DNA from: Nemertoderma westbladi | Taxonomy: Eukaryota; Animalia; Xenacoelomorpha | DNA length: 51,963 nt | Assembly: GCA_032718475.1 (NCBI GenBank) | Contig: JAUCBJ010007559.1 | Location: 1-51,963 of the forward strand | Direction: 5' to 3' | In this document: piece after piece, positions 3,430 through 51,555 of the stretch | Layout: every line of letters starts with the position of its first letter | Numbering within the stretch: position 1 is the stretch's first letter | Notes under the pieces: generated by a model | What the model saw: only the letters and a program-made list of their open reading frames with translations | Databases searched by the model: none | Told to the model about the DNA's origin: nothing | Made by a program: the position numbers and the translations under genes

Positions 3430-4030
3430 CTAACTAACGGTACTACGTACCCTCTAACTCTTCTCTAACTAACTAGCGCTACTTACGTACCCTCTAACTC
3501 TCTAACTAACTATTGGTACTACGTACCCTCTAACTCTAACTAACTAGCGGTACTACGTACCCTCTAACTCTCTAACTAACTATCGGTACTACGTACCCTC
3601 TAACTCTAACTAACTAGCGGTACTACGTACCCTCTAACTCTCTAACTAACTATCGGTACTACGTACCCTCTAACTCTAACTAACTAGCGGTACTACGTAC
3701 CCTCTAACTCTCTGACTAACTATCGGTACTACGTACCCTCTAACTCTAACTAACTAGCGGTACTACGTACCCTCTAACTCTCTAACTAACTATCGGTACT
3801 ACGTACCCTCTAACTCTAACTAACTAGCGGTACTACGTACCCTCTAACTAACTCTCTAACTAACTATCGGTACTACGTACCCTCTAACTCTAACTAACTA
3901 GCGGTACTACGTACCCTCTAACTAACTCTCTAACTGGCGGTACTACGTACCTCCTAACTAACTAACTAACTAGGTACTACGTACCTTCTTACTAACTCTC
4001 TGCCTACTTAGGTAGGAACTGCGTACCTAA
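3430..4030. repeat. Tandem array of 34/36-bp units (70-bp dimer) with GGTAC-tac-GTACC mini-hairpin core, about 16 copies
   Basis: taactagcggtactacgtaccctc recurs at 3541, 3611, 3681 and 3751, alternating with a tatcggtact variant. A T-run of about 21 nt follows near 4039-4059. Confidence 0.95.
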
Positions 4031-4147
4031 CATGTACTATTTTTTTTTTTTTTTTTTTTATTATTTTGTTTGTGGGAAGGGCGTCTCGCCCTCAATCCCA
4101 CCCCCCTCAGTCCAAAACTTGGACGACTAAACTTTTCTCTAACTCTG

Positions 4148-8729: not shown

Positions 8730-8821
8730 TTCTTCTAAACCCGGTTCCGCACCCTTCCTATCTCGAGTGGAGAAGGCGATTTTCCTCCACTTGTTGCGCA
8801 GCCAGTTTGGTAGTGCCTGCG

Positions 8822-12568: not shown

Positions 12569-12627
12569 CTCTCTTCTGCAGATTTCGGTGGCTAGTGGTT
12601 ATTGAGTTTATCTAGGGCGGCAGCTGG

Positions 12628-12636
12628 TTTAGTTAC
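12628..12636 (-). promoter_or_regulatory. Non-tRNA primer-binding-site candidate of element A (GTAACTAAA)
   Basis: Directly follows the putative LTR end on the minus strand and forms an inverted repeat with 12798-12806 inside the LTR. Confidence 0.55.
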
Positions 12637-13168
12637 TGTGACGGGATCCAAGAGGGATCCCGGTTTATCCGGTTTTAGTTCACGCGTCCCCGCCGTGTAT
12701 AAAGAGTGAATGAGTTCTGATGTTGTTTGTCGTATATAATATGATATGTGGATATAGATATAGATATAGTATTGTCATATATGGAAGGCGGGATACGGTA
12801 ACTAAAGTCCCGGTCCTTCCCTATCTAAAACTATGTAACCTAATCTAGCACCGGTATTGCACTGAGATAACTGAACTGATATGATTACAGGTTACTGGTT
12901 ATATTGCACGGTGGCCTTATTGCTACTCAATCGATGCCTTTCCCCCCTCTGATTGGTTGATACCCTTGTTGGCGCCCTTTGGAGTGTTCCCGTTCACTCC
13001 ACTTGTTCTCTCTTGGTTAGGGGTTTGGCCCCTGACCCTTATTGTGTGGTTCACCTCCCCACTCTTATTGGGATGGCACGAGTTGGTTGATTGCCCAATC
13101 TCGAGGCCCCCAATATTGCTTATCGGCTTAACTTTTATGGGGTGTTAGCGGGATTGGATAAGCTAACA
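12637..13168 (-). repeat. Putative 5' LTR of element A (about 532 bp)
   Basis: TG...CA termini. It sits just upstream of the first gag ORF and is followed by unrelated LINE sequence. The GTTAC|TG junction mirrors the proven junction of element B. The partner LTR is not in the window. Confidence 0.6.
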
Positions 13169-13183
13169 AAATCCAGGACCAAA

Positions 13184-16592: not shown

Positions 16593-18689
16593 TAAGCGAG
16601 ATTTCATCGAGATTAGATGTATAATATTAGATAAAATAATAATACAGTAAGTATAGGCCTACAGAAATAATTATTTTACTTTTAATATTCATAACAGTAA
16701 AACAAAAATGTTATAAACCTCTCCTTCCATGCAGCCAATGATTGAGAAAGCAGAATTACTCTGAGCAATTCGCAACAGACAACCCAAACCCACCCCACCC
16801 CAATCAACACTCCAGCCTGCTTGCTCCTTATCTGTGCCCAGCCAGCTAGCTGCGATTTCAATAATTACCTTAACGTTGCTATGATACAGAAAAAAATCCT
16901 TCCCTATTCACTACAGCACTAAGAATAGGCCAATTCGATCGTGCTTGGCGAATATGACATATTTATACACTATTTGATTTTTAATCAATAAATAATCATA
17001 CATATTTATATTAAACACTCGAATAAAATAAATACTTTGTGAGAATGGGACACGGCGAATCTACTCATGTTAATTTGATACCAGATGGGATAAATGTTAC
17101 CCCTCTAAATAATTAATTACCGATAGAAGAACCGAAATAATTCGATACATTTCGCCCGAACGAACACAAAATCTCGTGGATAAATTTGCCGATATTCTCT
17201 AATTTTTCACTTCTATTCTGTAAAGTAACTGTAAGAGTGTCAAACTAATGATTGTGAGAGATGATTAACACTATCTAAATACCCCAAATACATTTACTGC
17301 TGGACTGAAAATAATGCTGTTAGTAGCTGAAACTTGGTATATAAGCTTACTCAACCCAAACAAAAGGTCAAAATAAATAAAGATGAAGTGAAATGAATGT
17401 TAGTATCCTAATGAGACCCAAACCTAAGCCAAAACGATGAGCGCTGATACCAAATATATCAACACTCTAACCCTTTTGCGCTTCCGTGCTGCCTGTGCGG
17501 TTATTATGATGGGGTATCCCGGTTCAAATTGGCCCAAAACCCAAGTACAGGAAAAATAGTTAAAGCACCAGTTAACCTAATAGAATTGTGTACATCAACC
17601 TAATGAGACCCCCCCTCCCCTGTGGCTTACCCAGTCCAACTTACTGCCCTTATGTTTCACTCATGTTGTATGATATAATCCATCCTGTCCTGTGGCTCCC
17701 GCAGTCGGCCGGTATGGCTCGACGTCCTCACTCCATAATTATCATTATTAGGCGGAGAATGTGCCGCGCATGTGTAAAAACAACGGGTTTGAATTCCGAA
17801 CCGATCACCGGGTGTCTTTATTCCACCATTTTGATTCACAAATTCACCAACACAAACAAAACACAATTAGGGTTAATACATATATGTATATATTTTACGT
17901 TTTTACTGTACAAAATCAGAACATAATATCAGAGAAATTCAATACAATCTGAAGAAATTCAATATAAAATCGCGAAGAAAAATCAATATAACAACATATC
18001 ATATAACAACAAAACTGGTTTTTACCGGTTCCAGTAAGTTCTCTTTGACATTGCATAAAAATTCAGTAAACCGGTTTTTACTTGGATATGAGTAGCTACT
18101 AGCTTTCTTATTCGTCCAGCAAACAGATAAATGGCCAATCACAGCGCCCTTCTTATCACCTACATGGAATGGGCCTGGCGCATGCGCATAACTAGAGTTC
18201 AAACATAAACAGCATCTAAATTAATTTGTAAGGGCCACCCGTTTAGGTATAAAATTGGACAAATTATGGATGTAGAAATTCTGTATCAACATTTGTTTAG
18301 ATCCACCTTATTTACTGCGGTTTTAATACAGATATAAACTTGATTAAATATTTCCTAGTTTGCAATAAAATTCGGAATTCAAAATCGTCAATAAATTAGC
18401 CATAAATAATATCGTAAAAATAAATAAGTTTTTTTATGTATAGCTACTGCAGTACTACGTACAGAGTTGAACATATTTAATGTTTTGATTGACACTATTT
18501 ATTTTATAACATTATTTATGACATCATTATGACATTATTTATGTTCCGTTTATAACTTACCGTTTATTTATTAATTAACTTTATATAAGTTTTTATGATG
18601 GACCAATATCATTGATTCATTAATCAAGATACCCTATTTCTGTGGTGCTATTTGGTCAATATTATTAATATTACAACAATAATATGTTC

Positions 18690-23100: not shown

Positions 23101-23484
23101 TGGCAATATTTATATTGCCATAACATATATATGTAACAGCCAATCACAGCCGATTTTCAAAATTAGCTTCCCAGGCTTACTTATCGCAATAATTTGTATT
23201 GTCCGTTTAAATCCTTTTTTTGTCCTTTTTTTTAATTTTTTATGTCCTCCAAAAATCGAATGTTAGGTTCCATGCTACCGGTTTCTCTACTGCTGTTCTC
23301 TCAGGCTATCAGTACCGGTATTAGTATATATAGCACTACAGTATTTTGCTGTATTGTATGTACAGATGTAGGTATAAAGCAGGCATTTCTGTATTTTAGT
23401 ACCGGTACCGGCACCGGTACTGCTGTAGGCCTACTGTGTAGCCTACCATTTAAATACGGTACTGGTAGGCCTATCGGCAGACCG

Positions 23485-24085
23485 GTTGTTTTGGTTAGAA
23501 AATCCCGCCTCATCTGTAACCTGCTCCTTTGCCTGATTTGGTAAAGTGACCGTTTATTGTTTTGGTTAGAAAGGCCCGCCTCTGTAACCTGCTCCTTTCC
23601 TTCATTTTGTAAAGTGACTGTTTATTGTTTTGGTTAGAAAATCCCGCCTCTGTAACCTGCCCCTTTCCCTCAATTAATTAAGTGATCGTTTATTGTTTTA
23701 GTTAGGAAATCCCGCCTCTGTAACCTGCTCCTTTCTCTCAATTGGTAATGTTATCGTTTATTGTTTTGGTTAGAAAATCCCGTCTCTATAACCTGCTCCT
23801 TTCCCTGATTTGGTAAAGTCACTGTTTATTGTTTTGGTTAGAAAATCGCGCATCTGTAACCTGCTCCTTTCTCTCAACTGGTAATGTTATCGTTTTATTG
23901 TTTTGGTTAGAAAATCCCGTCTCTGTATCTTGCTCCTTTCCCTCAATTAGGTAAATGATCGTTTATTGTTTTGGTTAGAAAATCGCGCCTCTGTAACCTG
24001 CTCCTTTCCCTGATTTGGTAAAGTGACTGTTCATTGTTTTGGTTAGAAAATCCGGCCTTAACATGCTCCTTTCCATCAATTGGAA
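23485..24085. repeat. 68-bp tandem repeat, about 9 copies
   Basis: gtttattgttttggttagaaaatcccgcctctgtaacctgctcctttc recurs about every 68 bp. Confidence 0.95.
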
Positions 24086-24954
24086 ATTGTTTTTGGCTAT
24101 AAAATGAGTGTTTTGCTACGTCATGTGGTATTCGATTATCGACAACAACCACAAACTTTTAAATTTAGAGTCTTTTACCACAGGCGCATATGGAATTCTA
24201 CTCATAGTCTATAAATCATGGAATGTTTTGGCACAGGCATAGTGAAACCAACTGTCCGACAGACCAGAAATCAACAAATTTTGAATGTTTTGGCATAGGC
24301 ATGTTGAAATCAACTGTCTGACAGTCCAGAAATCAGCAGTCTGACAGTTTGAAGAAATACATACATAAAAAGTCATTAAAAGGACAATAAAAGTCATTAA
24401 AAGGACAACAAAAGTCATTATGCACAATTCGTAAAAAAAGGAGGACAAAAAAAGTCAAATAAAAGGACATAAAAATTCACTGCCCTTACTTATACTTAAA
24501 CCCGCCATTTCGACCGATTCTTCATGTTTTTACAAAAATCACACACGCCGCCACTCGATTCAGTAGGAGAACTCAAAGTTGGCCATCGCGAAAATTTAGA
24601 AATATCATCACTTTGTGCCAAATGGTAGGTTCTGTCCATGTGCCTGTGGCACTAGTTACCTTGATCCAAAAATTAAAATTTTGGTTTCTAACTAAGTTTG
24701 GACCCATTTGATGACATTTGATGCATGCAGGAAGTTCTTTCTTGAGTCATTGATCTTTCATTAATGTGTTATATTGCTATAAATTTCATTATGGCGCATC
24801 GCGATGGCTCAAAATTTCAACCCTCTTGGGATCCGTGAAGATATAGACGAAATTTAATGAAATTTTTTTTGCCTTATTTTTTTACCATTTGGCAACTTTT
24901 GTGCACCGGTAGAACAATGAAATCGAAAAAAAGTAAAAAAACTCACCACCCTAT

Positions 24955-26460
24955 TGTACGCGTCGTCGCGTCCGTGGGCTGCTGGGCTAATGCTGGATAT
25001 ATATATATTAGGCCGAAGGCCATTGAAAACGACAGAGTTAAATTGTCAGTATTAATAATCACAGTAATTGATAATAGCAGTCTGAATATAATAATATGCA
25101 ATACGGTCAGTAACGACGACGGTCAAAACTATTCCGGTCTCACAACTGTAAGGAAATCAACTAAACTAACATTCAGTAATCACAATGGTTATATCATTGA
25201 CACATATCACATCAGCCCTACACTACAGGGCGGCCTTAATATCCAATAGATGCGCGCTTGTCCTCCCCAATGTGCTTTCCCGCCGACTATTGACTTAACC
25301 TGATTAATTCTCACCTCGCCACTCCCTGTTGGCATTATCCCTTGGTGCTAGCCTTACTAGCTTGTTTGTCCCTCTGAGGTGGTTTGACCTCTCACCTCTC
25401 TCTGTGGCTTACGGCATGTGTCGCCCCAGTTGGTTATGAGGTGAGATCATTATTGGTAATCTCACATCGCCAACTATATTGGTAAAATGCCACTAACCCC
25501 ATTTTCGGTGGGTAATGCACGGAATTGAATCCACTTACACTCCCCCCCATGCTATCTTCCCGGTGAGAAGATAGCATCAACCTTAAGTGCGCTTCAATTC
25601 CGCTGGAATCCAATCTAATATTGGATTTGGAGTGGAATTTTCTTCTTGGGGTCGACTTTCCAGGCCGGCCCCCATGGGTCTGTTATCACTACCCATCCCT
25701 TGTACACCTGCGAGCTACGCCGTACCAAGGTATCTGGCGTTTCTGTTTTAGATGATTGCCCTCACTCCTCACACAATTTTCCTCATGGACTTTGTTGGAC
25801 TTAGTCCCACTGAGTGTCCCTCCTGTCTCCCTCTGGTAGCATCCCACAAGATCATCTTCATCGTGCGCGGCACGTGTTCTCCCAGAAAGTCCCTGAATTC
25901 GATCCTATTTTCTGGTGACCATCTGTCCAGGTATCTCTGGGTGTTGATGACCCCTCCGTACGATGCCGCTGTCGCTACCTCCTGATACATGAATGGTAGT
26001 CTCATCTTGGTGATCTCCTGGTGGGCTTCCACGTTTATGTTAAAGAAGCCCCACCGGAACTCCTGGGATGCATCCTTTGTCGTGTCATGACTATGACGTC
26101 GGCCCACTCCTCGAAGATCAGGAAGTTCTCCTCATCGTCCATACAGTCGCACTGGCGCTTAAAGTGCCCTCTAAACTTGCACTTTGAACATCTGTTGCGC
26201 AACCTCGGACACGCACCCATCTTATGGGTTGACTCACGGCAGTAGAGACACGCCGTCCCCTTCTGGAAACGGTATAGACAGTTATTTTGCTGACGGGTTA
26301 ATCTCCCACATTAATCGCAACCGTGTACTATTGTGTCCTTCCCCAAGTCGTCCTTGGCTCCGCGTGGCCTCCTGGGTCTATGGAGCCGCTGGTAGGCAAA
26401 TATCTGGACTCTGTCCTCCCTACCCATGTCGATGTCCTCCTCCACCCTCGGCATTGTTTC
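24955..26460 (-). mobile_element. Remnant C: 3' end of a BEL element related to A (LTR-like part, polypurine tract, accessory ORF tail)
   Basis: 25769-26330 encodes GACPRLRNRCSKCKFRGHFKRQC, FEEWADV and NTQRYLDRWSPENRIEFRDFL, matching A. A G-rich tract (minus strand, 25540-25548) abuts TGTAAG at 25539. The left boundary is uncertain. Confidence 0.75.
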
Positions 26461-27344
26461 TCCAAACATATAACGATATTAACGAACGAACCTCCATAAC
26501 GATATTGGAAATACATAAATAATAAAATATCCATAATAAATTCTAAATTATTAGTGTATTAACTTGTTTGTTAAATAACTAACCGAATTCAACTTACCTT
26601 TAATCTTATATACTAATCTAAATATACATAATTATAAAAAAGTCAGCTATGTCATATCAAAGTTATACAAAACATTAATCTTTATAAGCCTGAATATCTA
26701 TAATACTTACATGTATTTTATTAACAAAAATTCAAAGTAAAAGATTGTAGTTCTTAATCTTAAGATTAATTTAAAACTTACACAGCATTGGGGTAAAATA
26801 TTAATATGATATAATAAAAAATAATCAAATAAATAAATAAATATCAGTAGGCTAAAGGTAAGTGGAGTCATCTAATTTAACCGAATAACTAACCGAATAG
26901 GATACAGATATTTTACGATAATCTAAAAAAACAAGTTTATACGGTGCTTAGTACTATTACTAGTAGAATACAGTTTGAATTTCGCTCTAATAAAACCCAA
27001 TAACGACCAATAAACCAATGCAAACACCCCAATAACGACCAATAAACCAATTAAAACAGTCGATTTTAAGAGCCAAACTTTATACGAGTTTTTCTCAGAA
27101 TGAACATTTTTTCCCCAGGTCCCTTTTCTCGCAACCAGCCACTTGCTACTCTCTATCCATGATCCAAGGTACAGGAAGTCGTCAACCTTCCTTAGTTGAT
27201 TATTATCGATTGTTGTCGATTGTTAAATGCAATCGACCCCCTTAGAAGATATTGGAGTTATTAATTATATTTATCAATAAACAATAAAAGTAATACAGTA
27301 TCAGCTATAATAAATATTAATTGGCGAATATCTAGCAATTTCAG

Positions 27345-34159: not shown

Positions 34160-35499
34160 TACTACTACTACTACTACTAGGATCGGCATGCTGCATTGCA
34201 GCTGCATTTTTAAGAATGCTGTGCCGGCATGTTGACAAAATTGCGCCGCCACAACTCCCTATTACCCATGACATTTGCTAGATCATCCGCATCTTCAAGA
34301 CCAGTGTCCTTTAAGATGCGTCTCAAGAAAGTCATGGGCTGTCCACCATGCTTATTCACTCCATGAGGCTGCCAAAGTACAGGATTATGCACTGGCTGGT
34401 CCTCACGGCGAAAGCAATGTCCTGCAAAGCGGAGACGATTTTGTTCTAGTGTCAAGCTTGGGGGAACCAATGAGACACCTCCAATGTTATATAGTGTCTG
34501 GTTGGAGATGTGTGCATTGTACTTGACACAATGAACCCGGCGTAACATTCTTGTGAATGTGCCATCCAGAGATTTGGTGTCCTCAGCAGTTAGAGCCCAG
34601 CATGGACTACCATAGAGGAGTACTGGAACTACTGCTGCTCTAAATAATCGGACCTTAAGTTTCCGATTAATTCTCGGTGACTTCCAAATCCTGGAAAGCC
34701 TACTCAAGGCTGCCCATGCCTTTCCCTTACGTATTCGAAGGTCCTCACCTGACTTCCGGATCCATGATCCCAGGTAACAGAAGTCGTCCACATGCTCAAG
34801 CATACCATCCTTTGAGCTTATGCTCATCCGATCAGAGACTTGCTGAGAACTTTCAAAGTTAACTGTCAAAATGTTGGTCTTTCTGGAGTTAATAAAAAGA
34901 CCAACACTAGAAGCAGCATGTTCCAATGAGCTGAGGAGCCGTTGGGCTCCCTCTAGTGATTCTAAGAGTACTCCTAAGTTATCAGCAAAGTCTAGATCAG
35001 TTAGGTACTTGGCAGGATTTCCTCAACTTCTGGAGCCAGTAGGTGGAGTTATCATCACCCCATCATCATTATGATGATTTAAGGACATGCGTAGAACATA
35101 GTCAACCACAATTATGAACAAGAATGGTGCAAGTGTGTCTCCCTGGAGGACGCCCCTAACACTTCGAATGGTTCTGTGTCACCATCAACAGTAGACACAA
35201 ATGTTGTCGAACCATCGTATACTGATCTGATTGCTGCAATAATTTCATCAAGAATCCCATATAATGAAAGTATGCTGAACATAGGTGAGTGTGGGACTGA
35301 ATCAAAGGCCTTGAAGAAGTCAACAAAGATAACAGCCAGATGCCTGTCTTTCTTTTTTGATAACTATTCAATTATCCTTCTAAGTGCCAAAATGGGTTCC
35401 GTGGTCCCACGACCTTTACGGAACCCATTCTGATGTCCACGGAGCAGTCTCTCAATGGGATCCCTGATGCGATTTAATAGAATTCTATTGTATAGCTTT
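34160..35499 (-). mobile_element. RTE-type LINE, 3' half (RT core and C-terminus, (TAG)n tail)
   Basis: QNGFRKGR, FVDFFKAFDSV, QGDTLAPFLF, DFADN, FCYLGS, VLLYGSPCW, RLRFAGHCFR. (CTA)n run at about 34161-34178. Confidence 0.92.
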
Positions 35500-36751
35500 T
35501 GTTCGCGCTTTTGAAGACCTTTAGCAGTTTAACCTGCCAAAATTTATATGTCTTTTAGTTAATTAAAACACCTTTAGCATACGACAATCTTTTATGCTAA
35601 TACGCAAAACATTAGCCGAAGTCAGCCCATGCGCGATCATTCACCCGATGGATCTACACCCGGGAGGCTGAATTCGGATGCTTAAATTTTATTATTGCAG
35701 TGTAAGGTTGCAGTGTAAACTTACTGTATTATTCGATAGATCGTTAATAATTAATCTCTGACAGATATTATTGGCTTTCGGGAAATATTAACAGTTCCTT
35801 TAGGACGTGGCGCTTTATCTATTTAAACAGAACTAAGACTTATACTAAAACGCAACGATACTGCTTATGATTGAAGTATAAAGCGTATTCTTTAGGAAAT
35901 ACTTTGTTACCAATCACAATCATACACACTATTCTGCCGACCGTCAGTATATTTGATCACACATAAAGAGAGCAGCAATTGACTCACGTAGGGTCTGCTA
36001 AATAACATTGGATTCAATACACACCACATTAATATAAATCGCAATTGTTATGTATAGCCGGTCTCTCTAACCTGTAGTGTATCAAGAAAATTGGGAATTT
36101 GGGTGATTTATCCGTATTATCCAAAGAGCAATATTTCCATCAACAAATAGGTACAATTAATAACTGACGGTAAAATAACAGTACAAACAATATGATTAAT
36201 GCAGTTAAATTAAGTGAGTATGTTAATTAGTTAGTTATTGAGATTTGTTAAGTGAGGTAACAGTTTATACTTTCGATAATTCAAGCAGTTTTACTAGAGT
36301 TCTTCCCAAAAAGCCGGTGTTTCTGGCTTAGACAGCAATAACAACAAAGTATCAAGTAAAAGCAGTAAGACTGAACACTCTCCTTATGATCGGCTGAAAA
36401 GCTACACGTCGACAGGAAAAATCGCTCTGATTGGCTCAAGCCAAACAAAGAACTATGCGTCCAATGGATGTTTCCATGTCAGCAACCAGCTGTTAGATGT
36501 CGTAATATGAATCATCACGGCTAAGCTGTGAAAGGTAGTTGGTGCATTACAGGTTTTTTGCCTTACCATGTCCGCCAAAACACGTATATAGCAGAATGAC
36601 TTTTATGTCCGTTAAAACACCTGTAACGGTACCTTGCGGGCGAGGGGAATATATATACAGTTAGAGAACCTTTTTAGAGTATTCCAGCGCCTGGGGGGAA
36701 ACTGGATTGCGAAGCAAAAGGGGCCAGTTATATCCCACAGAAGCTTTTACA
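35500..36751 (-). repeat. 3' LTR of element B
   Basis: Same length as 46265-47516, with no mismatch seen by eye. Confidence 0.97.
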
Positions 36752-36760
36752 CCGCTCCCA
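36752..36760 (-). promoter_or_regulatory. Polypurine tract of element B (TGGGAGCGG)
   Basis: Purine-rich tract directly before the 3' LTR on the minus strand. Confidence 0.7.
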
Positions 36761-36829
36761 GAAAATGGGATTTGAGTCTATAAATATACAAAAATCACAG
36801 TTTCTAATATACGTAAATACTCTAAACAG

Positions 36830-38278
36830 TTAGTCTTTCTTGCGCGGACGGCGTTTACGCAGTTTTTTAAAGCTAGCAAGAGTCCTTTTCTCTTTGGGGC
36901 GAGCCACTTTACGAGGAGGGCTATAACTCCTGGGTGAAGGGTGCAATATGATTGCATCAGAAGGTATGGGATTGCGATCGGTGTATCCGCCGGTCGAAGT
37001 ACCGGGTTGATTGACATCAACGTCCGGGGAGAGGGGTCTAACGGCTTTGAGAGCTCGTTTCAAGACAGCCGCTCTTACGGGTCCTTTACGAGTGGTCTGA
37101 ACGAGGGCCGTGGGTGGACCATAGGCAGTTAGAAACTTCCTTGGTTTAATGGTTCTTTCCAACTCGCGTTCGCGGGCTCTGTACTCGTAAGGCTGTCGAT
37201 ATACTTCCTGTAACTCAGGGTGTGAGTTGACAAATAAGTCTCCATAGGCCGGATCTTGACGGATAAAGTTTATTAAGTTGTACGAATTGATGTCACTCGG
37301 ATTAATGCTCCTGAGAAATTTGCGTACATATTTGGTTGAAATACATTCTCCAACGCGCTTCAATAGTTCATAACTTGATATGCGTAATTTCTGTTCGACA
37401 GAAGCGAATAGATAAGGATGTAACGCATAAACTCCTTCGTAAGCGCGTCCGGGATAATAGCGATGGCGCGAATCACAATATAAATCAGTGTTCGCTTCCC
37501 AAGCTCTGATGTAACGTAGTGTGATCATTTCATCTACGCTTTCCAAATCGTGATTAAAAGGGCAATCGAAACTGGCATGTCCCTTTAGTTGACAATGGTG
37601 ACATTGAGTCATAAATTGAGGGCAAACCGCAAAAATGTGCAAATTATTAAATCTGCAATACGCGCAATAAATTTCCATCGCCGGTTGTTCGTGGAAATAG
37701 GAACAGCGGACGTTTGTGTCCATGGGCGTAACATGGTCTCTCGATGCGCATAACCGACAACGTTGCCGAGAAACATAGTTGGCATGGCGATAATCGTACG
37801 CAGTGAGACACTGTGGACTTTGATACCATTCTAGGATGTAATCGTTGTCGCTGTTCCGAGCGCGATAGGCTGAATCTCCTCAGATTCTAGACATATTGGT
37901 TCGTCTTCCCAGTCTGTTACGAATAGAATTTTCGTGATCTATTCTCGGTTTATCGTTACGACGCCGCTGGGTATGATATTTAAATAGAACCATTTCCCCT
38001 TCGGTGTCTACATCGTCCGTATCATGTAAATCGATAGGATGGCCGGTAGTTAAGAAGTCCATGTACGTACCATTACGATTCGTATAGCGAGCGGTGAATT
38101 TTCCATAGTCCGCTTCGCGCGTAAGTTGTTCCTGGGACATCGGCGGTTCGATATAACGACCATCGTCCTCAGTAATAGTCGGATCGGCTTCACCGCGTAT
38201 CAAGCTATCCACAAACGCTTGTAAAGGTAGAGTATATCGCTCTCTAATACCAAGGTCATCTTCTATCAATTCCGTCAT
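36830..38278 (-). CDS. Accessory zinc-knuckle ORF of element B, one frame with a single internal TGA (37880-37882)
   Basis: ORFs 37880-38278 and 36830-37723 are in frame and joined by 52 open codons containing CRLCASRDH. CAYCRFNNLHIFAVCP and CHHCQLKGHASFDC follow, collinear with A's accessory ORF. Confidence 0.75.
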
Positions 38279-39090
38279 ATCTGCTATCTGAGTTTGTTAA
38301 TATCAATATAAGCTAATATTTTAGGCAAGCGGGCGTCGCTGCCTACTAGGCTTTTTGCCCCCGGACAGTGGGTTTCTCAGCGCCGATGTACCGCTGTCGC
38401 AGTGTTTACGCCAACATGTAGCAACAGCACGACAACGATAACCGGCACAAGTCCCACCACTGTCCGTCCCAAAGGCTTGAATCCACTTGAGGTTATCTCG
38501 GTAGAGTTAGGGCTATTTTACAATTGCGATTAGCTACTGTAAACACACTTTAGTAGTAACATTCACCTATAAACGCACAAATTCCATACAATCATTACTT
38601 ACTGCACACATGCATGCCATTTGTCCGTTAGTCAGTGTCTTCCAGAATGTCACGTTATTACTATGTATCCTTGGATACTAATAGCGCGCTATGTATACTC
38701 TTATGCTACGCAATGGGGCAAGCTTTTATTGGTCCTTTAACTTGTTTCTAATTCTAGCGTGGGTGTTGCCATGGTGACATTATGGAAAACTAGCGGTAGA
38801 ATTAGGGCAATCCTCAGGCATACAGATCTGGGATGTTATTTAATAGTAATTCTTTAATTGTCAATATCCTCTTTATGCATGATTTTATAAATTTTATCGG
38901 CTATTGACTATATGTTGGAGATTCTCACACTCTAGTACACTCAATATGAATCTCCGCTCCCATGATCTATTAATTACTGGAATTTTGGGAATGTTATAAA
39001 TTGTACAAAATGACAATTTATGAAATTCATTTGAATATGAATTTAAATTTATTCCCGTGAATTTTATTATTTGATATTAAATTGACATAA

Positions 39091-39385
39091 ATTTTATTCC
39101 AGAGCATATCTGGGGACTTAGGATCCTTAATTCTATAAAATAGTCCTTCTAAGAATATCGGTAAATACTGCGATATCTTAATTGACTAGAAATTTTAAAG
39201 GATCGGGATTTTACAGATTTTAACAAAATATTAAATTAATATTTAGGATGGGCACCGATTTATTCCAGAACTTGTCGGGGGACGTTAACCACTGATTCTA
39301 GAATTTGTCTTTCAAGTATATCGGTGGGTGCCACGATATCTTAATCGACTAGAATTACAGATGGTCAAAAGTTTAACAGATTTAT
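39091..39385. repeat. Diverged tandem duplication, about 165 bp, inside element B
   Basis: tttattccaga...cgatatcttaat.gactagaa...acagattt occurs twice. Confidence 0.7.
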
Positions 39386-39900
39386 TTGCAATTTACGCTA
39401 CTGTTAGAGGGACATCACGCTACTATATGTATTATTTGTTATAAGGTAGAAGAGCAATATCGCACGAAGCAATGTCAGTGTGAAGAGGCAAGTCGTTTCC
39501 AAGGTCTACCCAGAGCTTGGTTTAGCCGAGACACGAGGATCTGAACTTTGCATTCCTAATACTCTGCCTACCAATAATACTTAAATATAGTAGTGGCTTT
39601 ATTGTACTTTAAGAAGTACTGACATGTCATCTTACTATAGTCTCGCATTTATAATATAATACGGACAGTAAGGAAAGAGAAAAATAATTATTTCTTGCCG
39701 TCGCACTAAATATATTGTAAGTAATTAAATACGTAATAAACACTAATATATTGCACTAATTTACTAAATATTCTAAAATAACATTCTACTAAATAAAATT
39801 AAAGAAAACGATTATAATAAAATTACATAATAATACATACATAAATATAAAATAAAAACAAATATAAAATGATATAGTCACACGCCCACTCCACATGCTA

Positions 39901-42900
39901 TCACGTTATGGAGTCCCTAGATATTTGCCGGATTAGGGAAGTAGTCGTAGGAAGAGTATCTTGCCTTCCATAGTTTTCGGACAGTTTTCGGTCTCTTTCC
40001 AGTAAACATAAACGACTAGCTGGGCGATTGAGTTGTTGTGTTACTTTCTCCGCTCCCTTGGCCTGTCTAATTTCTGCCGTGGTAAGATGAGGAGGCCATT
40101 CTTCTTCTTCTTTACTTAAGGAGTCGGATCCACCTAACCAGCCTGGAGTATCTATCAGTTCTTGAGGAGTTGCTCCTCTGGAAGCGATGTCGGCTGGATT
40201 AATCGTCCCAAGGCAATGTCTCCATTGATCTACATTGGAGTTAATATCGTCATTATCTGAGGAGTATGGTGTTCCCTCAGTTGGGTCGTCCACATCACTG
40301 CTCTCCACTTCCCCCTTTACTTGGTATACCTGTTGTTGAGGTAATCTCTCTTTGAGAGTTCTACGGGAAGGGCCAGTGAAGTACCAACCTACTCTAGTTC
40401 TTACCGCATAGGTTTGTAGTGGCTGTGGTTGAGCAGGCCGTTTCTCTAATGGCTCGAGCGCCTCATGCGCGTTTTGGCCGATGAGTATTTGCACTCCAGG
40501 ATAATCGGTTTGGAATCGAGGTATCTCAAGATGTTGGATGCACTCGTCCTCGTCCCAGTTATAAGGTTCTGCTTGAGTAGTAGCAAAGTTCTTTATAACC
40601 ATCATTTTTACTGACCTTATACTTTGTGTTCCTAACTTATCCTGGGGGGTGGACAACACACCTACATAGTAATCTGCCGTTAGGGTAGATTTCCAAACCT
40701 GCATAATTCCTGACATATTCAATTTAGTCCGGAACTTGGGTTGTCCAGCAAAGATATCTTCGGCTAGTTCTTGATCGATGAATGTTCCTGTACTGCCGGA
40801 GTCAAGTAGGGCGTTCACTATGTAACTCTTGTTGGGACCATGAACTCGAACTTGCACTACAGGAAATTCTCTTATTCCTATGTTGGAAGTTGGAACTTTC
40901 CAAGATGGTTGTTTGTCAAAAGTAGTTGGAGTAAACTCGTCAGTGTCCTTTTCATCCGTAAGTGCTCGATACACTGTGGTATTTATTAGATAACAGGATT
41001 CGTTGGCATCGGAGAATTCGTCTGTATAGAATCCTTCCCACTCAGAACTTTGGTCAGTGTCGTTCACATCACTGAATTGGACATGTAGTTCGGGCTCACT
41101 TACCTGACTCGGGTGGTCTCGATCGAACTCACTGTGTAACAAGATGTGATGTTTCGCGCCACACTTTGCACACTTTACGTCGGAGTAACAGGTTCGCCGT
41201 TGGTGTCCTGATCTGAGGCAATTATAGCATAACCGCTTATTCCACAGGACTGTACGTCTGTCTACAGGGGATTTCTTTAGAAATTCAGCACACGCACTCA
41301 AACGGTGGGGCCCGTCGCACAGCGCACATTTTGGTTTGATGTTACTCACCTTAACTTGGTTAACGTTATGCACTCTCGTTCTTTCTTCGGGCTTTCTTCC
41401 GTGAATTCTCTTAGGAGACGTAGGAGGAGTTGTTGTTACCTGTTCTCTCCTGTCACTGGTTCGAGACTTGTATTTACTTACGTCTTTATAGGTCTTGTTG
41501 TCATAGTAAGATTTTGCTGTGTCTTTCCCGCTGTCCTCTTCTTGAGAAGCTTGGCTCTCGCCGTCGTCAGTATAACACACTGGTATTATCCTTCTCCTAG
41601 AATCGGGTTTCTCACTTACCTTATTTTTCGATGTTTTCTCTCTGGACTGCCTTATGAGTTGTAATTTTACTTCACTATCTAAGAAAGACATGAGATCAGC
41701 CATGGTAGGACTTCGTCGTTGTTGTTCATTCATGTACAACACTTTCTTGTCCCAGCGTGTACATACTCCACCCTTTGGTAAAGTAGAGACTACGGCTCCA
41801 ATAACCATGGAACTCTGATATTCATGCGACTTACCTAACCAGTCCAATTGTCTACAGATCTCTTGAATTTCATCGGAAAACTCTATAATCTCGCTACTAA
41901 GGAAGTGTCGGGGGGCTACTAATTTTGCATACAAATACTTAGCTATGTTATCCTTGTTACCATACCTGATGTTTAATGTATCCCAAACTTGTCTTAATCC
42001 ATCTGGATGTCCAATAAACTTTAATGCCATTAACTTGGGAGGTCCTTCCAAGCACTTGATGAGGAATCTAAGTTTCTCTCCGTTAGATAGTACAGAGTTC
42101 TGTATGCTATCTTTGTAATATTCGTTGAAAGGTAACCATTTCATCTCATCTCCATTGAATTTGACGATCTCTCCCACTTTGACCGCTTGGCGGGCTTCTG
42201 TTCTAGCCATCTGACGCGTAAAGCTTTCTTGGGCCATCGTGTTATTTAATATCGAATTATCGGTATATAAATTTTTCGGATCATTATCAGGTCTATAGGG
42301 AATATCATTAATAACAGGTCTATAATCACCCTTAATAGGGTTTGCTATAGGAGTTTCAACTTCACTAGCAGTATAGATGCGTGTAGGCTCCACACCTTGC
42401 GCATGTAATACTTCAGACCTAACAGGTTGACACAATGTTACAGGGGGTATTGGTATGCCCTTTTGGATATTGACTAATTTGTTGCGTTCTAGCGCGATAC
42501 TTTGCTGCACTTCTTGCAACTCTGCTCTACCTTCCCTCACTGTTCCCTTAAGTTGGTGGACAGTCTCCTGCATCTGTCCTAGCAGGAGATTCATCCCCCG
42601 CCGTCCCTCTTCCACCCACTCAACCGCCGAAGCGGGAGTCGCCAACATAGTAGCGGGCTGACGCGGGACGACGGGAGACAAATTATTGATTTCTCTCTCT
42701 GCTATCTGGACAGGGGTATTTGCATGGACTGTTCCACCGGGTACAGGCAGTGTAGTGCTATGTAAAGGGAATTTAGAGTTAAGCTCTGGAAGTGTAGGGG
42801 TCTCTAGCACAGAAGTAACTTTGGGAACTACAGGCCTAATTATTTCAGGTTCATCGACTATAGTAGGGAGTCTTTTGACCTGGATAAATTGTTCTATGGG

Positions 42901-43956
42901 TTCTGCACTACCTAAATCTGTGCTAGTTAGCTGTCTTTTAACAGCTGGGGGCAAATCAGGCAATTTACGACGGTAATATGTTTTTCTACGCCTACTTAGA
43001 TGAGATCTATCTCCTCCGCCTTCAGGGTCGGTAGTATCGCCTTCCTCCGATGATGTGTACCCCTGGCGCTTGGGAGTAGATTTTCTCATCATCTGCATTT
43101 GATTAGCAGTAAACTGTTTATTTATACTGTCTTGTGTCTCTTGCAGATTCTCCAACTCCAGTTGGGTAATCTGCTCAGATGCTCTCCGTTCTGCTTCGGC
43201 CACTGCCCTTTCCGCCTTTGCTTCTGCCGTAGCCGCCGCCATAGCCGCCGCCTTTTGTTCCTCTATCCTTCTTTTCTTTATTTGTTCTTCTTGGACTCTA
43301 ACGAGGCGGAGTTTTTCATCACATTTAGCTTGTTCTGCAGCTAACATTTCCGCATCGATTGCGTCCAACACAAGCTTGGTTCCTTCACTATTAGGGCGAA
43401 GTCCAGACAGTCGTCTCCTCAACTCTTCGTCTCCTATGAATCGCTGATAGTCTGACAGATATATGTCAATGGCGTCTCTAGTTCGCGGCTTCTCTGCTGC
43501 TGTTAATTCGCTTTCCACTTCGCTTTCCACCTCGCTTTCCACTGGAGAAGAAGTGGCGTCGGTTGATTCTTCATAGGTTGGCCGCTCATCATAAACCATA
43601 TCCGCCATCTTCGCTCCGCGTTCGGGCGTCCGCTCAACAGTATCCGAACTACTGGAGCTATCGGGCCGCTGAGAACTAGGTTCTTGGCTAGGAGGTTGCT
43701 GCTGTTTTATAGCTTCTTCTTGATCCCGCTTGACTTGGGCCCGAGTGCCTATGGCAGACCAACGGCGCTTCACTAACTTCGCAAAATGCGAAATCGCTTC
43801 TACCAACCTAGGTTCTGATACAACCACTGCAGGGGTTGCCCTTCTTACAGTATGAGGGGTTTCAGACCTCAGTCTGGGATTCTCTACACTTTGATCTGAG
43901 AAACAGTCTGTTGTTTCTAGGAGACTATCTGACAGAGTTTGCCTTGTGTCAGCCAT
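39901..43956 (-). CDS. Gag-protease polyprotein of element B fused in frame to the RNase H tail
   Basis: KFNGDEMKWLPF...EKLRFLIKCLEGP, CALCDGPHRLSAC, CYNCLRSGHQRRTC, CAKCGAKHHILLH, ALLDSGS, AVRTRVGW, then QWRHCLGTINPADIASRG. No RT motifs. Confidence 0.93.
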   Translation of the reverse strand: MADTRQTLSDSLLETTDCFSDQSVENPRLRSETPHTVRRATPAVVVSEPRLVEAISHFAKLVKRRWSAIGTRAQVKRDQEEAIKQQQPPSQEPSSQRPDSSSSSDTVERTPERGAKMADMVYDERPTYEESTDATSSPVESEVESEVESELTAAEKPRTRDAIDIYLSDYQRFIGDEELRRRLSGLRPNSEGTKLVLDAIDAEMLAAEQAKCDEKLRLVRVQEEQIKKRRIEEQKAAAMAAATAEAKAERAVAEAERRASEQITQLELENLQETQDSINKQFTANQMQMMRKSTPKRQGYTSSEEGDTTDPEGGGDRSHLSRRRKTYYRRKLPDLPPAVKRQLTSTDLGSAEPIEQFIQVKRLPTIVDEPEIIRPVVPKVTSVLETPTLPELNSKFPLHSTTLPVPGGTVHANTPVQIAEREINNLSPVVPRQPATMLATPASAVEWVEEGRRGMNLLLGQMQETVHQLKGTVREGRAELQEVQQSIALERNKLVNIQKGIPIPPVTLCQPVRSEVLHAQGVEPTRIYTASEVETPIANPIKGDYRPVINDIPYRPDNDPKNLYTDNSILNNTMAQESFTRQMARTEARQAVKVGEIVKFNGDEMKWLPFNEYYKDSIQNSVLSNGEKLRFLIKCLEGPPKLMALKFIGHPDGLRQVWDTLNIRYGNKDNIAKYLYAKLVAPRHFLSSEIIEFSDEIQEICRQLDWLGKSHEYQSSMVIGAVVSTLPKGGVCTRWDKKVLYMNEQQRRSPTMADLMSFLDSEVKLQLIRQSREKTSKNKVSEKPDSRRRIIPVCYTDDGESQASQEEDSGKDTAKSYYDNKTYKDVSKYKSRTSDRREQVTTTPPTSPKRIHGRKPEERTRVHNVNQVKVSNIKPKCALCDGPHRLSACAEFLKKSPVDRRTVLWNKRLCYNCLRSGHQRRTCYSDVKCAKCGAKHHILLHSEFDRDHPSQVSEPELHVQFSDVNDTDQSSEWEGFYTDEFSDANESCYLINTTVYRALTDEKDTDEFTPTTFDKQPSWKVPTSNIGIREFPVVQVRVHGPNKSYIVNALLDSGSTGTFIDQELAEDIFAGQPKFRTKLNMSGIMQVWKSTLTADYYVGVLSTPQDKLGTQSIRSVKMMVIKNFATTQAEPYNWDEDECIQHLEIPRFQTDYPGVQILIGQNAHEALEPLEKRPAQPQPLQTYAVRTRVGWYFTGPSRRTLKERLPQQQVYQVKGEVESSDVDDPTEGTPYSSDNDDINSNVDQWRHCLGTINPADIASRGATPQELIDTPGWLGGSDSLSKEEEEWPPHLTTAEIRQAKGAEKVTQQLNRPASRLCLLERDRKLSENYGRQDTLPTTTSLIRQISRDSIT

Positions 43957-44091
43957 GTTTGTTTACACAGTTGAATGCCTACGGTTACAAATACAGTCAA
44001 AGTAAGTCTAGTAATTCAGTATCACCGTTAGCCTAATAATTAATTGCCGATACTGCTGCTCAGTGTAGCGTGATATATATATAATATATTA

Positions 44092-44460
44092 GAATACCGG
44101 TATGCTTATCATATATATATAAGTATGATTACAGACTAGATTTGTCACAGAGTACCGGTATATAAATTTAGCACAAATATATATAAATATATAATAGGCC
44201 TATAGTGAATACCGGTATACAGCTTACACTTATAGTATATATAAGTATTGTAAACTAGGTTTGTCACAGAGTACCGGTATATAATTTTAGCACAAATATA
44301 TATAAATATATAATAGGCCTATCGTGAATACCGGTATGCAGCTTACACTTATAGTATATATAAGTATAATTATGAACTAGAATTAATTACAGAATACCGG
44401 TATGATTTCAGCACAAATTTATAGAAATAAATATAATAAGCCTATGGTAAATACCGGTAT
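44092..44460. repeat. About 120-bp tandem repeat x3 in 5' leader of element B
   Basis: acagagtaccggtat...agcacaaat recurs near 44147, 44266 and 44389. Confidence 0.88.
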
Positions 44461-45448
44461 GTCAATTATTTTAGAATAATTGAATTTCTGAATATTTTAG
44501 GGTTACTTGGTTACTTTAACTTACTTTATTACCGTTATTTAAGCAGTAGTCCAACTGATATTGAGACCTAGTTGTTGTATGGCAGGCCTACTATTTATAA
44601 ATCGTTTGAGTTGATTTATAATATTTATATACCCGTTTAAAATGGGTTTTTGTCAATATTTGAAATAAATGTTATTATTTCTGGGGGGTCACTACACAGA
44701 AGCTGTGCGCTCTCAGTGAAGTGCTATTTATTTGACACTAAAACTGATAATTCTAGTTTACCTAAGTTACTTAGTTACTACAAATTACTTACGATACGGG
44801 TGAGATTAATTCTCTAGTTAAACACAACAAAAATATTACGTACGAAATTTTTAGGGTAATTTTACAGGAAGTCTACAAACCAGCCCAACAAAGGGTTAGA
44901 ATTCTGGTTATTACAACGGACAGGGTACTACGGTATTTGAAATAATAAGTAGTAGTAAATATATTGTACTGTCCAGATAGGAAAATACCACCGCCTGACG
45001 ACCTATAACCGTATCGCTATAGGTACTACGTTATGTATCACGGATTGTTCCTACCCAGAAGCTAATAGAGCTAACGAATGTGCCTATCAACCACTTTACA
45101 ACACAAATATACTGCCTACACTAATTACTTCGGAAAGCACTGTACACTAAACCCTAAATTAGGTACAAGTACCGGTATAACAAATAATCAGTAGTTAAAT
45201 ATACTTGAACAGTTAAAAGAACCACGGCATCTGCTGGAGTGACCGAAGCACAAAGTCGTCAGTCTTTACCTACGCCAAGCAGCCCTGATGTAGTACCGGG
45301 GTTAGTTTAACTATAACGGTATGTATAACAAGCACAATTACTGTAGGAATAAACTTGGGGACATGAATGTTGCGAATAATCGCATAAACTCTGAATAATA
45401 AATATTACGCTACCCGTACAGAATACTCAAACAAATACAAACCAAACG

Positions 45449-45960
45449 CTGGCAGACTACTATTAAGCCTAAACAAACTACAGTATGTGCAGATTCTGAA
45501 ACTGTTAGTTAGTATGCGTTCTAACACGGTAGTACGACTTACTCTTTAAGAGGGGATTGACCTTACCGCTTATGGCTGCCCCAACTTACTAACGGCACTT
45601 GATCAGACCAACTCTACACACGCAGCAATCCCTTCAGACTCAAAAAATAGCCAGACGACAATCCAGCCTACAAATATTTGAGTAATAACTATTACGGTAC
45701 CTGAACAGACCACACAAACAAACACAGGCTAAAACACTGGCAGACTACGATCAAGCCTAAATAAACTACAGTATATGCAGACTCTGAAACTGTTAGTTAG
45801 TATGCGTTCTAACACGGTAGTACGACTTATTCTTTAAGAGGGGATTGACCTTACCGCATATGGCTGCCCCAACTTACTAACAGCACTTTATCAGACAAAC
45901 TCTACACACGCCGTAATCTCTCCAAACTCAACAACAGCCAGACAGCAACTCAGCCTACAA
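45449..45960. repeat. About 288-bp-period tandem duplication in 5' leader of element B
   Basis: ctggcagactac...ctgaaactgttagttagtatgcgttctaacacgg starts at 45449 and again at 45737. Confidence 0.9.
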
Positions 45961-46251
45961 TTATCTGAACAATCTGAGCAGGGTCACACGCCTTCTGCTC
46001 AATATTAGCCTACTAGTAAATAAAACTGACAGAAATAGACCTAAGTAAAATCCCAATAAAAACCAGGCGTCCCCGATTTAATATCGAGACCTACCGGTAT
46101 ACAATAATCAAAATCGAATAATACTAAATGTACTTGTACAGCAGTACCGGTACCGGTGATGACAGTTAGGCCTACTGACCTACAGAAGCACCGGTTCAGT
46201 TTTACCAGTCACTACGGTATTTTGCAACCTTATTGCCTACTGCAATAAGAT

Positions 46252-46264
46252 TATAAACTGTTAC
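46252..46264 (-). promoter_or_regulatory. Non-tRNA primer-binding-site candidate of element B (GTAACAGTTTATA)
   Basis: Directly follows the 5' LTR end and forms an exact 13-nt inverted repeat with 47022-47034 (and 36257-36269) inside the LTR. Confidence 0.65.
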
Positions 46265-47516
46265 TGTTCGCGCTTTTGAAGACCTTTAGCAGTTTAACCT
46301 GCCAAAATTTATATGTCTTTTAGTTAATTAAAACACCTTTAGCATACGACAATCTTTTATGCTAATACGCAAAACATTAGCCGAAGTCAGCCCATGCGCG
46401 ATCATTCACCCGATGGATCTACACCCGGGAGGCTGAATTCGGATGCTTAAATTTTATTATTGCAGTGTAAGGTTGCAGTGTAAACTTACTGTATTATTCG
46501 ATAGATCGTTAATAATTAATCTCTGACAGATATTATTGGCTTTCGGGAAATATTAACAGTTCCTTTAGGACGTGGCGCTTTATCTATTTAAACAGAACTA
46601 AGACTTATACTAAAACGCAACGATACTGCTTATGATTGAAGTATAAAGCGTATTCTTTAGGAAATACTTTGTTACCAATCACAATCATACACACTATTCT
46701 GCCGACCGTCAGTATATTTGATCACACATAAAGAGAGCAGCAATTGACTCACGTAGGGTCTGCTAAATAACATTGGATTCAATACACACCACATTAATAT
46801 AAATCGCAATTGTTATGTATAGCCGGTCTCTCTAACCTGTAGTGTATCAAGAAAATTGGGAATTTGGGTGATTTATCCGTATTATCCAAAGAGCAATATT
46901 TCCATCAACAAATAGGTACAATTAATAACTGACGGTAAAATAACAGTACAAACAATATGATTAATGCAGTTAAATTAAGTGAGTATGTTAATTAGTTAGT
47001 TATTGAGATTTGTTAAGTGAGGTAACAGTTTATACTTTCGATAATTCAAGCAGTTTTACTAGAGTTCTTCCCAAAAAGCCGGTGTTTCTGGCTTAGACAG
47101 CAATAACAACAAAGTATCAAGTAAAAGCAGTAAGACTGAACACTCTCCTTATGATCGGCTGAAAAGCTACACGTCGACAGGAAAAATCGCTCTGATTGGC
47201 TCAAGCCAAACAAAGAACTATGCGTCCAATGGATGTTTCCATGTCAGCAACCAGCTGTTAGATGTCGTAATATGAATCATCACGGCTAAGCTGTGAAAGG
47301 TAGTTGGTGCATTACAGGTTTTTTGCCTTACCATGTCCGCCAAAACACGTATATAGCAGAATGACTTTTATGTCCGTTAAAACACCTGTAACGGTACCTT
47401 GCGGGCGAGGGGAATATATATACAGTTAGAGAACCTTTTTAGAGTATTCCAGCGCCTGGGGGGAAACTGGATTGCGAAGCAAAAGGGGCCAGTTATATCC
47501 CACAGAAGCTTTTACA
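46265..47516 (-). repeat. 5' LTR of element B
   Basis: TG...CA, direct repeat of 35500-36751. Confidence 0.97.
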
Positions 47517-48860
47517 GCTTTGCAGCAATCGAGATCAATGAGATTCCCCGAAAAGAACCATAGAGTATTAGGTTGCCCTTCTTGAGAACTGGCACCAACT
47601 TATTTGTTTTCATTTCTTGTGGGACTCTTGTTGTTCGGTACATGTCTACTATGATGGGATAGCTGAGCTTTAAACACTCAGGTATTTTAAAGACCTCAGG
47701 GGGAACACCATCTACTCCACTGGTACGATTGGTCTTAATGCTTTTTGCAGCAGCCTTCACTTCTGCAAAGGAGATATCGCCAATGGGAAAATCTGGGAGT
47801 ACAGACTCAGACACTTTTACTTCTATAAAGTTATCAGGATTGTCATTATTGAGGAGCTTATCAAAGTGGGCCTTCCAACCATTGAGGCGATTGGCTGGTG
47901 ATTCAGCCTTAACCTTGGTGGTTGGTTGGCTTTTCCGCCCAGTAAGCAAGTTGATCGATTTCCATGCCTGGGATGATAGCCTGCTGTCGTCGGCATCATT
48001 GATGGCATCAACCTGTTGGTTTATTAGCTCCTGTAGATTAACAGAGTACTGCCTTTTCAGGGACCTAGATGCAGCCTTAACTGCATTCTTGGCCGCTGTA
48101 GTCTGTTTGAGTCGGGACTTTTTCTGCGCCTTATATAGGTCATTTCGGTCCTTCTGGATTTTGTTGTCAGTCCAGGGGGCCCGTTTCCTGTTTCCAGGGT
48201 ATACAGGAACTGTTTCTGCAGCTGCTAACTAAAGAACCTCATACCTTTTGCTCAGCTGTAGTGTGAAGCTGGATCTCACACTTGGCTGTAGCAACAGAGA
48301 GGACCAGTCATGCCGCGGCAAGGCAGATTTCGTTGTTCTGCTAGCACGCAGACTAAGTCTTACCTTGGCCACAATAAGGCGGTGATCACTGGAGAAGGGT
48401 CGAAGTGTAAATGCATTACAGTCTTGTATAGAGCTCCTGTACTTCCTACGAAACAAAATATGGTCTATCTGGGACTTGTGACCACTGGGACCACTATGAG
48501 TGCATAGCTTTCCTGTTCGCTTCTTGAACTGGGTTCCAGCCGAAAACACTCCATTTCCAGAGATAAAATCCTGAAGATGGACGGAATTTCGGTTAACACT
48601 ATTGCTATAGACCCAGGGCGATGTAGGTGATTGATGTAGACTTGCATTAAAGTCTCCCAGGAATGTTAAGAATGCATGCTGATCCACTCCATCAGTAGCT
48701 GCTTGTAGATTGTGGTAGAAATTTTCCACTTCCTCTACAGGTTCAACACTAGTTGGAGAGTAGCACACAATCAGAACCACCTTAGGAAACTTCTTAGCCA
48801 GTCTTCCAGAACATGAGAAGTGGCAACGGATGATGCGGCTAGAGATTTGGTCCAATTTTA
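47517..48860 (-). mobile_element. RTE-type LINE, 5' half (AP endonuclease, linker, RT start), 5'-truncated
   Basis: IVCYSPT, LGDFNA, SQIDHIL, SDHRLI, SGVDGVPPE, FRGISLISIAAKL. Continues as YNRILLNR after element B is removed. Confidence 0.93.
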
Positions 48861-49149
48861 TTTGGTCCTATTTTGTCCAATGCATCGTAATGCAGCCTTA
48901 CAATGGGGGTTGTATTGTACCTACGCCAGGCCTACAATTGAACATAACAGTTCGATATGGTGTCCCTATCTTGATAAGATATAAACATATTGGAACGTAC
49001 CCAGCACTCCTTTAGCCGTTATCTTCCCAGTATGTTTGGTCTCAGCTGTAAAAATAGATTAGATAAGCTTGATGCGAAGCCTCTGGAATATCGCAGGATC
49101 CTCATTGACCTGGTCGAAAAATGTTCAAGATTATAACGAACCTGGCTAT

Positions 49150-51023: not shown

Positions 51024-51177
51024 CTGAAATAATAACATTGTCGTACAATAACACAACAGAGCAATACATTCGAATACAAGAAATTATAATTTAATTTATT
51101 AATTCAATGGGGGGGGGGGGGGGGGGGGGTCATCAGGGCGTGCCAGGGGAGAAATTTGTATGGAAACCTCCATGAAC

Positions 51178-51365
51178 GGAACCATGGACCCTAACTTCTC
51201 TGAATGCCGCCATCCCAGAACCATGGACCCCACCTTGTCTGACAGCCTCCATCCCCGGAACCATGGACCCCGCCCAGTCTGACAGCCTCCATCCGCAGAA
51301 CATGGACCCGAGGACCATGGACCAACTTGTCTGAAAGTCTCCAACATTGGAACCATGGACCCCTA
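51178..51365. repeat. About 40-bp minisatellite in intron
   Basis: gaaccatggaccc...gtctgacagcctccatcc units, about 5 copies. Confidence 0.85.
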
Positions 51366-51555
51366 CTTCTACAAAATGTGACAAAATGTTTTTGTCAAAC
51401 CGGCATAGCATCTCAATGTGCAGTTTCAATGCTGTAGGCCGACTATAGTAGTTGTAGTTAGTGGTTCGACCCATTAAACCTAATCCATCATGTCTGTCCC
51501 CTTCCAAACTATTACACTTGTACAGATAGTCTAATATTTATTGCTGAAGACTTAC

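Follow-up and report, generated by a model that had tools for sequence, protein, structure and literature searches.

The window analysed here is a 51,963-nucleotide stretch of Nemertoderma westbladi DNA (contig JAUCBJ010007559.1), and the feature of main interest within it is element B, a 12-kb retrotransposon on the minus strand (35500-47516; Table 1). Both of its LTRs end in TG..CA, and contigs from runs X1 and X4 fuse the 2 flanks without the element when the flanks are compared, so that the boundaries are supported by an empty site. The earlier note had taken the LTR boundary to be fixed by the twin LTR and the target-site duplication, and the 1252-bp pair at 100% identity, the GCTTT duplication and the empty-site contigs all bear this out. 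The insertion lies in LINE-like sequence, with endonuclease and RT-end pieces at 34210-35499 and 47517-48867. Runs X1, X3, X4, and X5 were analysed as contigs, and X4 is only guessed to be RNA. For element B, the summed contig depth in X1 and X3 is in the hundreds of thousands and variants are numerous, which fits a large family, depth not being equivalent to copy number.

Table 1. Coordinates of the features of element B and of the putative priming sites of element A in the window.
Feature	Position	Strand	Remarks
5' LTR	46265..47516	-	1252 bp, 100% identical to 35500-36751
3' LTR	35500..36751	-	1252 bp; second copy of the 13-mer at 36257-36269
Target-site duplication GCTTT	47517..47521, mate 35495-35499	n/a	5 bp
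Polypurine tract	36752..36759	-	
PBS position	46252..46264	-	13 nt directly adjoining the LTR end; TGG absent
Predicted self-primer segment	47022..47034	-	exact PBS complement, LTR positions 483-495
Hypervariable stretch	46970..47016	-	LTR ~501-547; depth drop >100-fold; substitutions, indels, replaced sequence
Candidate TATA box	47416..47422	-	LTR position 95, from motif scan; those of relatives at 88-198
Candidate poly(A) signal AATAAA	46453..46458	-	LTR 1059-1064, the sole one in the LTR
Leader arm 3' of the PBS	46223..46248	-	predicted 20-bp pairing with LTR 1040-1060
LTR arm of the predicted 20-bp helix	46457..46477	-	LTR 1040-1060
Non-coding leader	43957..46251	-	2.3 kb; tandem units of 288 nt and 119 nt
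ORF	39901..43956	-	Gag (DUF1759, zinc-knuckle-like motifs), protease-like region, ~50-aa RNase H-end scrap
3' accessory frame	36830..38296	-	2 pieces, 138 + 349 aa, one stop between, Cys/His motifs
Element A candidate PBS	12628..12636	-	ACA, then the first five bases of element B's; no twin LTR to fix the LTR end
Element A 9-nt complement of candidate PBS	12798..12806	-	170 nt upstream

The Gag of element B matches DUF1759 with an E value of 3.8e-12. The gag-protease region matches distant BEL polyproteins only (23% to 44% identity), and the best-matching proteins that were checked (P0001, P0010, and P0015) contain Peptidase_A17, DUF5641, and DUF1759. Reverse transcriptase and integrase were looked for in element B and neither was found, the RNase H-end scrap being all that is present. 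We file the element as a BEL/Pao-derived, non-autonomous derivative and not as a complete member of that group; its identical LTRs together with the missing RT suggest that it moved recently, with enzymes supplied in trans. The 3' accessory frame has no Pfam match and is weakly similar to a 740-aa ORF of element A (E 1e-4). An Rfam scan of 43900-47600 returned one match, at chance level (U12, E 0.83), and ARAGORN detected no tRNA gene within the window. Metagenome contigs yielded no relative when the gag of element B was the query, and repeated scans of viral contigs found nothing.

Element A (1-13169, minus strand) is a second BEL/Pao element, with pol in pieces separated by stops and frame changes, a 70-nt tandem array at 3412-4027, and the 740-aa 3' ORF, which has Cys/His motifs; it forms a long branch on an integrase tree, and its 3' LTR lies outside the window. 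The 9-nt complement of its candidate PBS was equalled in 25 of 20,000 shuffles of the putative LTR, a post hoc comparison, and a TATA/initiator-like pair (12903/12877) precedes this complement by approximately 70 nt. A remnant of an A-like element occupies approximately 24950-26470 (minus strand), with a purine tract and a piece of 3' ORF that is 64% identical to that of element A; its likely LTR has TATAA with initiator-like motifs 26 and 31 nt further on, a spacing as in element A. The window further contains tandem arrays at 15400-16630 (146-nt units), 23440-24120 (68-nt units), and 51150-51370 (approximately 40-nt units), and dispersed repeats at 19669-20402/49130-49934 (92%, direct) and 18683-19043/34923-35283 (81%, inverted, LINE-like).

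For reverse transcription of an LTR element, the sequence adjoining the 5' LTR must pair with the 3' end of the primer. The earlier note had claimed that element B lacks a tRNA-type PBS, that this position pairs perfectly with the element's own LTR, and that an RNA ending at the last C of the complement would abut the LTR end. Each of these points holds. Read from 46264 to 46252, the PBS matches 47034-47022 exactly as its reverse complement. Pairing begins at offset 0 and extends no further than 13 nt, and there is no TGG within the first 7 bases. Of 9501 internal 13-mers, only 1, the one directly following the LTR, is complemented in the LTR; a 13-nt match at offsets 0 to 3 was reached by 2 of 5000 dinucleotide shuffles of the element B LTR. 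It could be argued that the complement is a chance match or a DNA-level inverted duplication without function, given that the sequence is AT-rich and that a contiguous match such as that of element B could come from a DNA event. However, a single match among 9501 positions that falls exactly at the LTR end, and a complement that in relatives is not contiguous in DNA (see below), make this reading extremely unlikely.

In element B itself the match is contiguous and not split by a GT-AG intron, the best canonical LTR junction giving -11.4 kcal/mol versus -15.5 kcal/mol for the contiguous match. A spliced primer for element B was considered and rejected, as the 12-nt junction in question needs a non-consensus donor at 491 and disappears with consensus donors. 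With regard to sequence variation in the contigs, no substitution or indel at or above 2% is listed for 47020-47053 in X1, X3, and X5. Because the neighbouring 47055-47120 is equally quiet, with no substitution at 2%, the invariance of the 13-mer is weak evidence, which fits constraint and does not prove it. The contigs of X4 leave 46971-47050 without cover, which proves nothing, and one low-depth X4 contig has different letters across the LTR end and PBS (46222-46270); the simplest interpretation is a sub-family that shares the ACA|GT start and has another PBS, the orientation of the contig being ambiguous. The candidate poly(A) signal is changed at one base in 26% (X3) and 45% (X1) of the contig depth.

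RNA folding predicts a 20-bp helix between the LTR and the leader (-25.3 kcal/mol; equalled in 2 of 200 shuffles; pair probabilities 0.78 to 1.0) which crosses the primer helix and would thus form a pseudoknot. In another window of the fold, the helix adjacent to the PBS is unremarkable (16 of 100 shuffles), and such a helix is not general among relatives, where 3 of 11 give at most 4 of 100 shuffles. The LTR-end duplex of element B was equalled in 13 and 42 of 200 shuffles. In a nested fold from LTR 483 to leader 1420, the primer helix has a probability of 0, because it crosses stronger helices and needs a pseudoknot, which ViennaRNA cannot score. Among 22 mapped variant sites (the LTR/leader part of 40 listed among 157), 1 lies within the helices, and there a G-U pair is kept. 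Leader and LTR share a further exact inverted pair of 12 nt (46113-46124/46491-46502), which is nested outside the 20-bp helix and adjoins a consensus splice donor at LTR 1028.

With an alignment of 12 BEL polyproteins as query, we obtained 79 metagenome loci (from the best 80 of 551) and 7 genome-bin loci; the latter (L080-L086) are BEL/Pao retrotransposons on contigs from bacterial genome bins and most likely represent host DNA contaminating those bins. A flanking direct repeat was present in 32 of these 86 BEL loci, from which 11 were picked by eye where both copies run past the LTR end; element B shares approximately 23% to 27% identity with the fetched relatives over gag-protease. TGG is absent from all 11 twin-defined LTR ends. 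In 8 of the 11 relatives, the PBS pairs with the LTR of the same element (10 to 15 nt) only when a predicted GT-AG intron is bridged, in 2 the complement is contiguous, and in 1 there is none; in other words, an element-specific complement is kept by the relatives, mostly across a predicted LTR intron. Under a strict filter, 7 of the 11 (L020, L021, L053, L058, L072, L083, and L084) match 10 to 15 nt across an intron of 67 to 451 nt with a consensus donor and a pyrimidine-rich acceptor, and for each of them none of 2000 shuffled PBSs reaches the match. The eighth, L051, has a 10-nt spliced match with a laxer acceptor. The contiguous complements are 11 nt in L065 (2 of 2000 shuffles) and 10 nt in L075 (6 of 2000), and L023 has no complement to its own LTR. 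The choice of the offset limit (4) and of one donor motif followed inspection of L053 and L058, and the end of L072 was shifted by one base by hand.

These pairings are specific to the individual element. In a cross-element control of 128 unrelated pairs, spliced matches scored 0 in 126 cases and 6 in the other 2, and contiguous matches reached a maximum of 9; no PBS fits an LTR other than its own or that of a sister element. No slid junction beats the GT/AG position, with ties occurring where bases repeat. The intron is present in both LTR copies in 6 of the 8 loci, the other 2 having one copy on the contig, and a contiguous copy of any of the 8 exon junctions is found nowhere among the 86 loci. 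That the PBS matches an exon-exon junction absent from the DNA suggests that processed element RNA serves as primer. In L083 and L084, whose LTRs are 88% identical, 2 of the last 3 exon bases differ and 2 PBS bases differ to match, which on sequence grounds is a compensatory change in close relatives. The PBS/LTR covariation across the family that the earlier note had proposed as a check is thus seen, with an own-LTR complement in 10 of the 11 relatives and the compensatory change in L083/L084, and its candidate for self-priming gains family-level support by comparison. PBSs beginning with GT pair flush, whereas those with another start (L020, L021, L053, L075, L083, L084, L019, and L027) have a spacer of 1 to 4 nt before the pairing.

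Since the offset limit and one donor motif had been tuned on the first loci, a held-out scan was run with the same rule on the 46 of 75 loci that had enough upstream DNA. Nine gave 10 to 13 nt, 4 gave 7 nt, and 33 gave none, while the null reached 10 nt or more in 1 of 230 runs; the contigs of the 37 loci below 10 nt may not all include a whole LTR. Two of the 9 matches are near-copies of L051 and L058, which brings the overall number of distinct families to approximately 13, and 7 of the 9 have the ACA|GT start that is also found in element B. On a quick integrase tree of 65 rows, from which 22 loci were omitted as lacking a long integrase match, the self-complement signature is scattered over the whole tree and its classes do not cluster; for example, the intron-less L065 groups with the intron-bearing L056, L058, L059, and L077 (support 99). 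Element B, having no integrase, cannot be placed on this tree.

An alternative reading of these data is that the pairing is structural, serving packaging, end-to-end pairing, or the hiding of a 5' poly(A) signal, and that priming actually depends on a host RNA, for example a tRNA half. Priming by tRNA halves exists in Ty1/copia lineages (PMC6317226), and the 20-bp helix of element B ends on the sole AATAAA of the LTR. However, a host primer would give few shared PBS types, and the approximately 13 families have differing PBSs, each fitting only its own LTR and covarying with it. We therefore regard a host primer as very unlikely. Self-priming, as a prediction from sequence, is well supported by comparison with the relatives.

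Where on the element RNA the putative primer lies is indicated by the relatives. In those with a TATA motif, the primer segment is approximately 125 to 240 nt downstream of it; the junction lies 142 to 243 nt past TATA where one is seen and 8 to 99 nt before a poly(A) hexamer, suggesting that the primer probably lies within R and has to be released by a cut. This bears on the strict Tf1 form of self-priming, in which transcription of element B would start at approximately LTR 483, with the initial 13 nucleotides of the RNA as primer. Consistent with such a start, there are CCAAT-type boxes at LTR 287 and 318, the GC content falls near 450-500, the sequence just downstream of the primer segment is hypervariable, the complementarity stops at 483 on its upstream side, and an additional, pretzel-like helix is predicted in element B. 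Against it stand the distances from TATA in the relatives and the position of the element A complement relative to its TATA/initiator-like pair. Moreover, in some copies other sequence takes the place of that lying 21 or more bases upstream of 483, which leaves no conserved -30 element. Priming in element B is probably not of the strict Tf1 form, which we consider unlikely.

The TATAAA at 483 could instead be a TATA box, as the earlier note cautioned, with full-length RNA starting approximately 30 nt downstream and the primer being provided in trans by the U3 copy close to the 3' end of the RNA or by a separate short LTR transcript. The copy of element B in the window has a CA initiator-like site 30 nt downstream, and in element A and the 25-kb remnant initiator-like motifs come 26 and 31 nt after TATAA. 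However, the initiator-like site of element B lies inside the hypervariable stretch, there is another TATA-like motif at LTR 95, as in relatives, a cut in U3 would destroy the strand-transfer acceptor of that RNA, and the exact complement is left unexplained. A TATA box at this position is, in our assessment, quite improbable.

Taken together, we consider it likely that element B, a recent BEL/Pao-derived insertion, primes minus-strand DNA synthesis with RNA of its own LTR instead of a tRNA. Transcription would start upstream of LTR 483, placing the primer segment inside R. By analogy with Tf1, the 5' copy of this segment would pair with the PBS, probably aided by the 20-bp LTR/leader helix, and a cut after C495 would provide the 3' OH; the cut would probably be made in trans by the RNase H of the RT of an autonomous partner, which is not seen in the window. 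In relatives with an intron, the primer would arise when the cap-proximal copy is spliced, and the unspliced 3' copy would transmit the intron; element B would be an intron-less form with a ready-made primer. On comparison, the most likely placement of element B is as an intron-less representative of a BEL group that primes itself, often with a splice-built primer. We lean, by a little, towards the broader proposal that a wide BEL/Pao lineage self-primes, with a spliceosome-built primer in most families (an intron in R, the spliced cap-proximal copy pairing with the PBS and the 3' copy keeping the intron), and that element B is a high-copy, non-autonomous, intron-less representative with a Tf1-like pseudoknot. 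If true, this would add a third LTR superfamily with self-priming, with a primer that is internal and often splice-built, and would tie retrotransposon replication to host splicing. It would also offer a simple annotation rule and account for the 'no PBS found' calls made for BEL elements.

The BEL element Cer7 of C. elegans is reported to encode its own tRNA-like primer. It resembles the elements described here in having an element-encoded primer within BEL/Pao, but that primer is tRNA-like, whereas ARAGORN finds no tRNA in the window. The earlier note knew of no self-priming in BEL/Pao, and the literature covered agrees with this: there is no report of BEL/Pao self-priming or of a splice-built primer in the sources consulted (including PMC3601003, PMC6934838, PMC3286476, PMC13524379, and PMC8220671), and an earlier mention elsewhere, for example in subscription papers or repeat-database reports, is possible. 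PMC3118150, PMC554778, and PMC6238403 likewise give no match to PBS as a term. The Belpaoviridae profile describes an 18-nt PBS for host tRNA-Arg or tRNA-Gly, tRNA priming, and a poorly understood replication (PMC8742986). Element B agrees with this profile in its LTR layout, polypurine tract, DUF1759 Gag, and protease and RNase H remnants, but at 12 kb it has no complete pol, in which RT, RNase H, and integrase would follow the gypsy order, and TGG is absent from both element B and all 11 fixed-end relatives.

Outside BEL/Pao, fungal GalEa resembles element B in having no tRNA PBS but differs in using a local leader hairpin, an LTR complement not being found there in the part of the source available (PMC5445492). 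The TAR elements of Ty1/copia (Houba, Osr-1) and Tcn1 indicate that self-priming also occurs outside Tf1/sushi, and there too it is predicted from sequence, as here; they differ in having plant or fungal hosts and belonging to other superfamilies, and no splice-built primer is described for them in the portion of PMC6317226 available. The closest parallel in priming is with Tf1, Tf2, and Tj1 of the Tf1/sushi group, which have in common with element B the absence of a tRNA PBS and a PBS complementary to a short LTR segment. The pretzel of Tf1, with extra duplexes beside the PBS that cross the primer helix, may be partly present in element B. Tf1/sushi elements have a Ty3/gypsy chromovirus pol with a chromodomain, and element B, whose proteins are BEL-type, is not a member. 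The Tf1 primer is the first 11 nt of the transcript, with RNase H cutting between bases 11 and 12 (PMC7175516, PMC4600332, 10.1101/2022.12.06.519325), whereas the putative primer of element B is probably internal to R and those of its relatives are split by a predicted spliceosomal intron.
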